A stretch of DNA of 64,000 bases from a virus. Below are positions 3,834 to 5,684 of the stretch, in pieces. The position numbers and the translations under genes were made by a program. The stretch's first letter is position 1; every line of letters starts with the position of its first letter. Under the pieces are notes generated by a model, which worked only from the letters and a program-made list of their open reading frames with translations, did no database searches and had not been told where the DNA came from. The DNA is taken from the IMG/VR virus record IMGVR_UViG_3300028653_000010, one strand, 5' to 3'.

Positions 3834-5684
3834 TCAGCTATTCTTGGTGAACCCAGCCCCAACAGGGGTCTGGAAGAAGGTTGAAATCAAGATCTCAGGT
3901 TGAATGGAACACTGCTTTAGAGCGTCGAAAGCGCTATCAAAGTTCGGAGCTGCCTCCGTAATCTGGTAGTCTAGGTCCGTTCTAAGAGCCATAAGTTCCA
4001 CATTTAATCGGGCTTGTTTCTCAAAGCCTCGGATCTTGTCGTACTGAGTCTTGGTGACCCCGGCTAAGCTTGAAGCGTAGACCCCATCGATCGATCCGTG
4101 CGTTGTTAGAAGGGACGCCAGGATCTTACGAGGTACTCTTGGGACCCCGGGCAGATTGTCCGATGTGTCACCTGAGAGTGCTCTGAGGTGAACCATCAAC
4201 CGGGGCGGGACCCCATACTCTGACACAACTCTATCGGGGTCGTAAAGGGTCTCAGGTCGACTTCCTTGCTTTGGTACTAAAAGTAAGTCAGTGTATGTAA
4301 CCAACTGTAGGAAGTCACGGTCTGTAGAGATGATTATGTTGTGTTTACCTTTTAGCTTGTTCTTCAGTAAACAAGCGATAATATCGTCTGTTTCCTCGTC
4401 TGGATTATGGACTTGTGAGATGCCAAACATTGGAAGCATAGACTGAAGTCGTGACATCTCATCGTGTGTACCCTGACTATGCTCTGGCCTGCCTGCCTTG
4501 TAGTCTGGATACATGTCAACCCTACGCTGCTTAGAGCCATCCCATACAACATACATATTAGCTCTCTCAAAACGCTTCTTGAGTGCAGCTAAGCTACGCA
4601 AGAACCCAAATACTAGTGCAGTTGATCTGCCCTCACTATCGGTTAGCTGATCAGGGATGTTCCTTAGAGCATTGACAACCCTATAAGCTAGATTATGCCC
4701 GTCGAACACGATGTTGTTAGCCATATCTGGGTTCCAATCTGGTAGTGACCTCTCAAGTTGGTCACAATCACTGTGAATCTGTGAGTATCTAGCTATGAAG
4801 CTGTCGAGTAGGTCTAGTGCAGCTGAAGAGTTGGCTAGTTGTGAGACCTCTGGCAATTGAATCAGAGGTAAGTAGAAGAAAAACCCTGACCTTGATATGA
4901 ATGAGTTCATTTGCTGAACTTGATGAAACTTTTTCAGCAGAGGCTCGCTATCGGATCCCGTGAACATCTCAGGTGCCACTGGGTCTACTAGTAACTTCCT
5001 GGCTCTTCTAAAAGTATCAAGCCACGAGGTGATTCTTAGGTACCTGTCATACTTAGCTTGTAAGGGTTTTTCGGAACTAACCAAATACTTATTCGGAGCC
5101 TTGGCACGATCAATCCACTGCTTAATCCTGAACAACTTAGTTAGGAACGGGGAGTTGTACTGCTGGTCTTCGGTATTAGAGACATACTTCAAAAAGCTCC
5201 GAGGTAGTGTGATCAGCGCCTGCTTCGACCTGAGCTTAACGAATACTTGAACGGAGTTATTCTCAGGGATGTTCTCAATTACCTTGCCAACAATCCCGCT
5301 GTAGGCCCCACTCATGACCAAGACTTCGTCGCCTACCTCAATCCCTTGTTCAGTCTCAATGTGAAGCTGAAGGCGCATCTGTTCGATGGAGCTATCAGGC
5401 ACCGCCGATATCCTACGAATCCGATGATCATACACTGTCAGGATTGAGGTAATATACTTGGAACCCTCCAACTTGAAGTATACGGGGTCAGGTTGTGTAC
5501 GTCTAACGAAGATGTAGTTCTCAATTAACTTGTAAACTGACCTAGAATGCCCGCGTGTGATGGTTGAGGCTGGTACAAATACATCCTTCAAGCTCTTGAT
5601 AGATTTTCCAACAGCTTTTCTGAGGACCTCTGGGTCCTCATCCTCACCTTGAGGGCTTAACTCTAGGACAACCCACTCAGGCAT
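3834..5684 (-). CDS. NusG-like (NGN+KOW) domain fused to PolA-type 5'-3' exonuclease/flap endonuclease
   Basis: N-term 'WVVL..VFVPA..LIENYIFV..VGDEVLVMSGAYSGIVGKV'; C-term 'FDGHNLAYR', 'YPDYKAGR', 'ETDDII', 'STDRDFLQL', 'GDTSDNLPGVP'. Confidence 0.85.
   Translation of the reverse strand: MPEWVVLELSPQGEDEDPEVLRKAVGKSIKSLKDVFVPASTITRGHSRSVYKLIENYIFVRRTQPDPVYFKLEGSKYITSILTVYDHRIRRISAVPDSSIEQMRLQLHIETEQGIEVGDEVLVMSGAYSGIVGKVIENIPENNSVQVFVKLRSKQALITLPRSFLKYVSNTEDQQYNSPFLTKLFRIKQWIDRAKAPNKYLVSSEKPLQAKYDRYLRITSWLDTFRRARKLLVDPVAPEMFTGSDSEPLLKKFHQVQQMNSFISRSGFFFYLPLIQLPEVSQLANSSAALDLLDSFIARYSQIHSDCDQLERSLPDWNPDMANNIVFDGHNLAYRVVNALRNIPDQLTDSEGRSTALVFGFLRSLAALKKRFERANMYVVWDGSKQRRVDMYPDYKAGRPEHSQGTHDEMSRLQSMLPMFGISQVHNPDEETDDIIACLLKNKLKGKHNIIISTDRDFLQLVTYTDLLLVPKQGSRPETLYDPDRVVSEYGVPPRLMVHLRALSGDTSDNLPGVPRVPRKILASLLTTHGSIDGVYASSLAGVTKTQYDKIRGFEKQARLNVELMALRTDLDYQITEAAPNFDSAFDALKQCSIQPEILISTFFQTPVGAGFTKNS

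Follow-up and report, generated by a model that had tools for sequence, protein, structure and literature searches.

Apart from NusG/Spt5, no transcription factor is known to be conserved in all life, and every NusG/Spt5 protein that we know of docks on the clamp helices of RNA polymerase, where the family serves as an adaptor that brings Rho, ribosomes and termination nucleases to the enzyme, always as separate proteins. The termination nucleases recruited by Spt5/NusG are Xrn2/Rat1 in eukaryotes and FttA in archaea. In phages, the late transcription of T4, which employs gp55, gp33 and the sliding clamp gp45, acts at promoters. The jumbo phages Goslar and PhiKZ encode Rhc, a nuclease of RNA-DNA hybrids in which an RNase HI-like domain is fused to a clamp-derived DNA-binding domain; Rhc binds the phage DNA polymerase, experiments revealed separable roles in replication and late-gene transcription, and removal of R-loops has been proposed (PMC13648698). 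Here we describe a gene from a huge uncultured phage, termed NusG-FEN, which joins a NusG-like module to a flap endonuclease (FEN) in a single chain. It was identified in a stretch of 64,000 nucleotides (nt), hereafter the window, of IMG/VR virus record IMGVR_UViG_3300028653_000010. A widespread clade of huge phages has joined the NusG adaptor to what is probably its replication flap nuclease, and has kept the two together over deep divergence beside a sigma-like gene.

Domains of the NusG-FEN protein

An earlier note, made from the sequence alone, had proposed one 616-amino-acid (aa) frame holding NGN and KOW domains, a helical linker and a nuclease of the PolA type. Reading of the open reading frames (ORFs) and Pfam bear this out on the minus strand, the plus strand of the same interval being riddled with stops, and the three parts were confirmed at aa 1-168, 169-320 and 321-616. 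PHROGs profiles agree with Pfam, matching the protein as an exonuclease and, weakly, as a transcription antiterminator. The features of the gene are as follows.

3834..5684, minus strand: whole NusG-linker-FEN gene (P0001), 616 aa plus TGA stop
5690..5693, minus strand: Shine-Dalgarno-like GAGG with 5-nt spacing to the ATG, read directly from the sequence
5361..5684, minus strand: NGN domain, aa 1-108 (Pfam, profile, Foldseek, VIA-align, alignment)
5181..5348, minus strand: KOW domain, aa 113-168 (Pfam, alignment, VIA-align)
4725..5180, minus strand: helical linker, aa 169-320 (model, alignment)
4722..4724, minus strand: internal ATG (M321) at the linker/FEN boundary
3837..4724, minus strand: PolI-type 5'-3' exonuclease/flap endonuclease domain, aa 321-616 (Pfam, fold, alignment)
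3873..3893, minus strand: C-terminal hydrophobic motif I-L-I-S-T-F-F, aa 598-604 (alignment)

The N-terminal module is a divergent member of the NusG family. Against Pfam, the KOW domain (aa 117-148) scored 25.3 bits, above the cut-off of 22.3, and the NGN domain (PF02357, aa 4-104) gave an E-value of 0.004 and 18.0 bits, below the cut-off of 22.2; precomputed PF02357 matches are present on some homologues. Thermotoga maritima NusG aligns with the single NusG-FEN sequence across both domains (aa 4-160, E 4e-5), and when a profile of 41 family members was compared with the PDB, the top eight matches were all NusG chains, the best at 5e-8. An AlphaFold (AF2) model of aa 1-318 had a mean predicted local distance difference test (pLDDT) score of 81, rising to about 90 across NGN and KOW, and with this model Foldseek retrieved NusG, RfaH and Spt5 (E 5e-9 to 1e-5). 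By VIA-align, the KOW domain matched that of T. maritima NusG (2xhc) with a Z-score of 11.4 and a root-mean-square deviation of 1.2 Å over 56 residues, and the NGN domain matched RfaH (Z 9.8, 97 residues) and the NGN of NusG (Z 8.1). Three NGN signatures, W-V-V-L-E-L in the first strand, G-E-x-E-D-P in the G-E loop and N-Y-x-F-V in a further strand, are nearly invariant in the family, and W4, D17, P18, Y57 and F59 of the NGN domain, as well as P-R (161-162) of the KOW domain, are fully so.

The KOW loop sets the module apart. In the alignment with T. maritima NusG, the I-F-G-R of NusG is replaced by L-R-S-K (151-154), residues that show little or no variation in the family. In E. coli NusG, the phenylalanine of this loop touches both Rho and S10; because the tip reads RSK instead of FGR, NusG-FEN is unlikely to contact Rho or ribosomal protein S10 in the manner of the housekeeping protein. 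The changed loop thus marks the N-terminus as a divergent family member rather than a housekeeping NusG. Also, the NCBIfam scores fall far below their cut-offs (25.7 against 135.7 for TIGR00922 nusG, 29.2 against 100 for UpxY and 21.8 against 125 for LoaP).

The nuclease half is assigned with much higher scores. Pfam 5_3_exonuc_N (PF02739) covers aa 325-491 (E 5.8e-31; 107.8 against a cut-off of 34.3) and 5_3_exonuc (PF01367, H3TH) covers aa 492-577 (E 1.3e-15; 58.1 against 40), while the best NCBIfam match is the N-terminus of PolI (E 8.5e-50). The C-terminal 296 aa were modelled at pLDDT above 90, and the fold matches Mycobacterium smegmatis FenA (6c33; E 3e-18, template modelling (TM) score 0.78), E. 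coli ExoIX (TM 0.83) and the N-terminus of Taq PolI. In 37 sequences with identity down to 37%, D328, D382, E431, D433, D455, D457, D506 and D509 are invariant and D434 is nearly so (at least 90% conserved), in a spacing that we take to match the acid set of E. coli PolI. Since all of the metal-binding acids are invariant, the nuclease looks active.

At the C-terminus of the nuclease, the hydrophobic motif has the family consensus h-h-x-x-F-F, with F603 at least 90% conserved, at a position which presumably corresponds to the PIP-box site of FEN1. By eye it resembles a clamp-binding, PIP-type motif, and it may act as one. A complex prediction with two beta clamps and FEN aa 560-616, run with alignments and without control runs, scored 0.01 and counts neither way.

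Between the two halves lies a linker that is predicted to form five helices (pLDDT 45-93). Its length and sequence vary within the family, around the conserved anchors S-P-F..K..R.R.W (residues ~178-190, including W190) and R299. VIA-align of the N-half model gave no convincing PDB chain match to residues 170-318, to which a known fold may still apply, and an ESM Atlas search matched the NusG part and returned nothing for the linker. In two relatives, the linker portion of the family profile has a weak match (E 7e-5 and 5e-4) in an ORF of about 415 aa some 10 kb upstream, at the following positions found by the profile search of relatives.

G001:C1:100387-100863: weak linker-profile match
G003:C1:247866-248303: weak linker-profile match

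By its position this ORF would be the RecA-like gene, and the match is probably a helical or compositional similarity. A comparison of the beta clamp of the window with the linker-profile match gave no similarity.

Conservation, fission and the sigma link

The fused gene is neither rare nor recent. The identical 616-aa protein is present on 10 contigs, one of them longer than 200 kb, and the two places examined come from different samples. Of 176 relatives in a protein database, more than 120 are full-length with 37-87% identity, on contigs of up to 512 kb, and IMG/VR yielded 560 matching stretches, including about 60 distinct loci with the full architecture, down to 30% identity and on contigs of up to 529 kb. 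The gene order at all such loci is constant: beta clamp, then further on a Toprim primase, metallopeptidase, DnaX-like clamp loader, NusG-FEN, sigma-4 and a 300-aa protein. The neighbours named in the earlier note, dnaX and a sigma4-like gene, were found as claimed, and the genes of the block that concern us are listed below.

5677..7113, minus strand: DnaX-like clamp loader, always directly upstream of NusG-FEN (Pfam, PHROGs, synteny)
3186..3827, minus strand: sigma-70 region-4 protein, 213 aa, always directly downstream (Pfam, synteny)
10080..11342, minus strand: phage beta sliding clamp, 420 aa (no Pfam match; structure, TM 0.79-0.89 to beta-clamp clusters)
7126-7620, minus strand: PhageMetallopep (PF18894), between primase and clamp loader in every locus examined

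The stop of the clamp-loader gene and the start of NusG-FEN share 8 nt, ATGCCTGA (5677-5684). Overlaps of this kind are typical of translational coupling, to which the two genes may be subject. The sigma-4 gene is the best conserved of the block (42-96% identity across loci) and lacks region 2. A second segment resembling a helix-turn-helix is visible by eye in its product at aa ~125-170, where Pfam does not detect one. The PhageMetallopep gene is an odd, invariant member of the replication operon.

Among cultured phages (INPHARED) there was no fused form, and only the FEN part found matches there (aa ~318-595, below 35% identity). When 185,579 species genomes of bacteria and archaea were scanned with sequence patterns of the N-terminal module, no relative came up at this sensitivity, and hence no clue to the host. 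A large clade of phages of 300-530 kb conserves the NusG-FEN architecture, which is ancestral there. Automatic protein names at JGI already list both domains; both come from well-known families, and NusG-like proteins of phages are known as well. A literature search, with most subscription journals outside its reach, turned up no publication that treats NusG of huge or jumbo phages or a protein joining NusG to an exonuclease, and the fusion itself appears to be undescribed.

The fused state is the rule, with a single uninterrupted frame in 39 of 43 distinct loci, as a check proposed in the earlier note had asked; split relatives do exist, as derived and organised two-gene forms. The four truly split loci are L003, L055 (= L004), L059 (= L005) and L060; a further locus, L083 (P0145), was left out of this count, since it looks split while its dnaX is frameshifted and the assembly is probably of low quality. 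In each of the four, an ORF for NusG plus linker and an ORF for the FEN lie in different, overlapping frames, with overlaps of ATGA in L060, ATGgcTGA in L003 and 29-44 nt in the others, and the linker remains on the NusG half in every split relative. The L055 type of split was found again in two further independent samples. In a quick maximum-likelihood tree, a split clade of three (support 100) is nested within a fused clade (100), L060 is sister to a fused form (100), and the fused state occupies all of the deep branches. This placement, which takes two changes, indicates that the fused state is ancestral for the clade and that the gene was re-split at least two times independently, each time at the linker/FEN boundary. 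A FastTree of NGN-KOW alone hints at more lineages of NusG plus tail, some of them possibly fragments at contig ends, and these were not counted. Because two lineages have re-split the gene while keeping overlapping frames, as is usual for translationally coupled genes, the covalent link appears useful but not indispensable.

The same boundary carries the internal methionine (MANNIVFDG) pointed out in the earlier note, which is M321. An ATG stands at this boundary, within eight codons of the first FEN motif, in 27 of 34 fused relatives, and a Shine-Dalgarno-like motif precedes nine of these 27, compared with 21 of the 301 remaining internal ATGs (Fisher p 2e-4; 0.009 once close kin were collapsed). 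The FEN gene of L003 begins at the equivalent of M321 (MAENIVIDG versus MANNIVFDG), and in the other split forms the FEN starts within a few residues of that position. The genome described here has no Shine-Dalgarno-like motif upstream of M321. A free nuclease made from the internal start, as the earlier note had suggested, is therefore plausible in some lineages and without support for this genome.

A gene census covered five related genomes (G001-G005, the records behind L014, L013, L019, L044 and L055), of which four are complete, with direct terminal repeats and lengths of 407-529 kb, and one is partial. NusG-FEN is the sole match to PF02739 and the sole match to the NusG-linker profile in the complete relatives. 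All carry a PolA-family polymerase without a 5' nuclease, of 956-1044 aa in the four complete genomes and 935-1044 aa with the partial genome included. The PolA ORFs of G001-G005 have long N-terminal regions, which are not 5' nucleases. Pfam models found no RNase HI, Pol III alpha or RNA polymerase beta' subunit in the census genomes, and only weak matches to sigma region 2. The model for T7-type RNA polymerase had no match there and none in control genomes either, and is thus uninformative. With a sole FEN, a PolA lacking its own nuclease and neither RNase HI nor RNA polymerase detected, we infer that the primers and flaps of replication are removed by the FEN and that transcription in these phages depends on the host polymerase.

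A wider search placed the N-terminal module beside sigma factors in other phages as well. Compared with 1.84 billion representative proteins, the NGN-KOW profile retrieved 513 relatives, the strongest being fused forms of 540-690 aa and the next being stand-alone proteins of 165-230 aa (E 1e-22 to 1e-27). The relatives discussed below lie at these positions.

L085:5001-5555 (also on L084): stand-alone NusG-like gene, 181-184 aa, with block neighbours
L080:3612-5237: P0183, sigma-NusG fusion
L081:6001-6657 and L082:1552-2208: stand-alone NusG-like P0178

Two stand-alone NusG-like proteins on smaller phage contigs sit in a block of primase, metallopeptidase, dnaX, NusG-like gene and sigma-4. The sigma-4 of this outgroup is orthologous to that of the window (40% identity, E 6.5e-35), and there is no FEN between it and the NusG-like gene. 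Since these contigs hold the pair without the FEN, the NusG/sigma-4 pair is the older unit and the nuclease a later addition in the huge-phage clade. In another phage group, P0183 is a 541-aa protein made of a sigma-70 factor (regions 2 and 4) with NGN-KOW at its C-terminus; its NusG module keeps the family signatures at 34% identity (E 1e-27), and in relatives within this group NusG-like P0178 follows a 527-aa sigma-like ORF, overlapping it by 8 nt. Such a sigma-NusG fusion is in itself unusual. BLAST found no similarity of the sigma part of P0183, or of the sigma-like ORF of L081, to the sigma-4 protein of the window, so that the sigma link between the phage groups appears at the level of domain class only. 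The NusG module always lies beside a sigma-like gene or is fused to one, and no other evidence speaks as strongly for action on RNA polymerase as this apparently constant partnership.

Possible roles of the fused protein

The reading that we favour, and hold tentatively, is that the NGN domain docks on host RNA polymerase while the linker holds the nuclease near the transcribed DNA, where it would serve in R-loop or primer processing as well as in the maturation of Okazaki fragments. In removing Okazaki primers and flaps, the nuclease would have as its partners PolA, the beta clamp and its loader, primase and the NAD ligase of the phage. Docked on the clamp helices of the host enzyme, the NGN would make the nuclease travel with transcription, so that the protein would carry an activity against flaps and RNA-DNA hybrids along on the transcribing polymerase. 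In a heavily transcribed, co-oriented genome, the nuclease could then clear R-loops and RNA-DNA hybrids, or process transcripts that serve as primers, where transcription meets replication. Tethering to the polymerase is a reasonable reading of the NusG homology taken together with the repeated sigma linkage. The earlier note had already proposed such a tether, with R-loop or primer removal, conflict resolution or torpedo-like termination as candidate tasks.

Several observations weigh against this proposal. Binding of the NusG module to polymerase is something that we infer. The module is divergent, given that all NCBIfam scores for the NusG family fall far under their cut-offs and the Pfam NGN score is below its own, and it might have another partner. 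As the natural split forms show, some lineages can do without the tether, and the stand-alone genes of the outgroup show that the NusG-like protein can function without need of a nuclease. Furthermore, the apparent lack of a phage RNA polymerase was judged with Pfam models, from which a very divergent enzyme can escape, and the censuses cover relatives at 36-56% identity, this phage being represented by 64 kb.

The strongest competing account, which we regard as unlikely though deserving of real weight, is that two independent jobs share one chain: NusG would act in elongation or antitermination with sigma-4 on long operons, the FEN would remove the primers of replication, and the fusion would do no more than ensure co-expression and stoichiometry within the replication operon, delivery of a nuclease to RNA polymerase playing no part. 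This account fits the outgroup phages, which hold the NusG-like gene alone in the same slot, the re-splitting of the gene on at least two occasions, and a linker so variable in sequence and length; the conserved boundary ATG and the enrichment of Shine-Dalgarno-like motifs in some lineages would likewise permit a free FEN. It is less easily reconciled with a fusion that persists to about 30% identity across hundreds of genomes, or with the conservation of the linker anchors W190 and R299. Also, the split forms keep overlapping frames and leave the linker with NusG, which suggests that the halves still work together.

We consider it quite doubtful that the protein is a switch that couples late transcription to replication, in which the FEN would read nicks or flaps, perhaps by way of the beta clamp, and NusG with sigma-4 would recruit or activate host RNA polymerase there, in analogy to gp33/gp55 and the gp45 clamp of T4. 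The gene does stand between clamp loader and sigma-4 in every locus, at the border of the replication genes, the phage has its own beta clamp, and the conserved C-terminal FF motif falls at what we take to be the PIP-box position of FEN1. Clamp binding is nevertheless a conjecture, the NusG family acts in elongation and not at promoters, and a purely recruiting protein would have no need of invariant catalytic residues, although replication would. A broader idea, to which we give similarly little credence, is that NusG-FEN, sigma-4, beta clamp and clamp loader form a machine physically coupling host polymerase to replicating DNA, either as a replication-dependent late switch, with the flap nuclease sensing nicks and flaps in the way that T4 employs its sliding clamp, or for the conversion or clearing of transcript primers.

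It is improbable, too, that NGN-KOW has been re-purposed as a targeting or processivity domain for a partner other than polymerase, such as a replisome component, single-stranded nucleic acid or the ribosome. The divergence of the module below the NusG family cut-offs and the change of the KOW tip from FGR to an invariant RSK could be taken in this sense, and barrels of the KOW/Tudor type bind varied partners, as the varied VIA-align matches recall. Conversely, the three core signatures of NGN are conserved, and the repeated linkage or fusion to sigma would make sense only on RNA polymerase.

Very little speaks for a torpedo terminator, in which the tethered nuclease would degrade nascent RNA from 5' to 3' and dislodge the polymerase. 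Spt5/NusG does recruit nucleases for termination in eukaryotes and archaea, relevant structures (8qsz, 9bct) are among the fold matches, and the theme appears in paper titles (PMC11695829, PMC11616081); however, PolI-type FENs act on duplex-linked 5' flaps and RNA-DNA hybrids and are not known to attack free single-stranded RNA that ends in a triphosphate, the closest relatives of the domain are DNA flap nucleases, and replication of the genome calls for a FEN, of which this is the only one. Finally, an artefact of assembly or a recently lost stop, named in the earlier note as grounds for refutation, is for all practical purposes excluded, since against the few relatives with two genes stand 10 contigs with the identical protein, 39 of 43 loci fused without a stop, and fused forms on all deep branches.

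The fusion points to an undescribed and testable physical link of phage transcription and DNA replication. If the NGN does ride the host polymerase, NusG-FEN would be a natural covalent link between transcription and lagging-strand or R-loop processing, and a handle on how giant phages avoid conflicts between transcription and replication or time their late genes. The fused, overlapping-split, stand-alone and sigma-fused forms make up a ready-made natural series for dissecting the tether, and the pieces are small, soluble-looking domains that could be expressed and assayed.

Window genes and described systems

The window as a whole is a phage replication block, with RecA, an SbcCD-like pair, a PD-(D/E)XK nuclease, beta clamp, primase, clamp-loader subunits resembling tau/gamma, delta and delta', RecD2 helicase, NAD ligase and class II ribonucleotide reductase. 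NusG-FEN lies at the border between these replication genes and downstream genes without known function. Other features of the window are as follows.

449-1948 and 2234-3139, both minus strand: two conserved genes downstream of sigma-4, function unassigned
23315-25261, minus strand: B12-type ribonucleotide reductase
29362-31056, minus strand: Cpn60/GroEL-like chaperonin
32558-33961, minus strand: RtcB RNA ligase
46857-48284, minus strand: 475-aa ORF with a Cas12f1-like TNB domain

The two downstream genes encode a 499-aa acidic, Gly/Pro-rich protein and a 301-aa protein, the latter found in nearly every locus and carrying only a weak hint of an immunoglobulin-like fold. The TNB domain of the 475-aa ORF suggests a TnpB-like nuclease within the phage genome.

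Four points about this system are new: the gene has split independently more than once, an outgroup keeps a stand-alone form within the same order of genes, a sigma factor is fused to NusG in another phage group, and the KOW loop is changed. With the NusG paralogues (RfaH, LoaP, UpxY, ActX/TaA) and NusG/Spt5 themselves, NusG-FEN shares the order of NGN and KOW, the fold and the core motifs; its best sequence matches are UpxY, NusG and LoaP, and, like the RfaH-type paralogues, its module is an extra, element-encoded copy. Unlike them, it falls under every family cut-off, has the RSK loop, is encoded by a phage and is paired with sigma-4, and no described paralogue has a helical linker of 150 aa and a nuclease of 300 aa. 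The stand-alone NusG-like proteins of phages (165-230 aa) belong to the same subfamily without linker and nuclease, and BFVD holds phage proteins named NusG or RfaH. The nuclease, for its part, has the fold, Pfam domains and catalytic acids of the PolI 5' nuclease and FenA, of ExoIX/Xni and of T5 FEN, but in contrast to PolI or the stand-alone FENs it is joined to a transcription-factor module, while the PolA of these phages has no such domain.

More distant systems resemble NusG-FEN in concept. Both the T4 late system and the NusG-FEN block join transcription factors to replication proteins, with no homology between them and with a clamp link that is conjectural here. Rhc likewise offers a conceptual precedent and not homology, being RNase HI-like where NusG-FEN is a FEN with a NusG module. 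In the pairs Spt5-Xrn2/Rat1 and Spt5-FttA, a NusG/Spt5 factor places on the elongating polymerase a nuclease that is a protein of its own and has nascent RNA as its substrate, whereas in NusG-FEN the nuclease is covalently fused and of the DNA-flap type.

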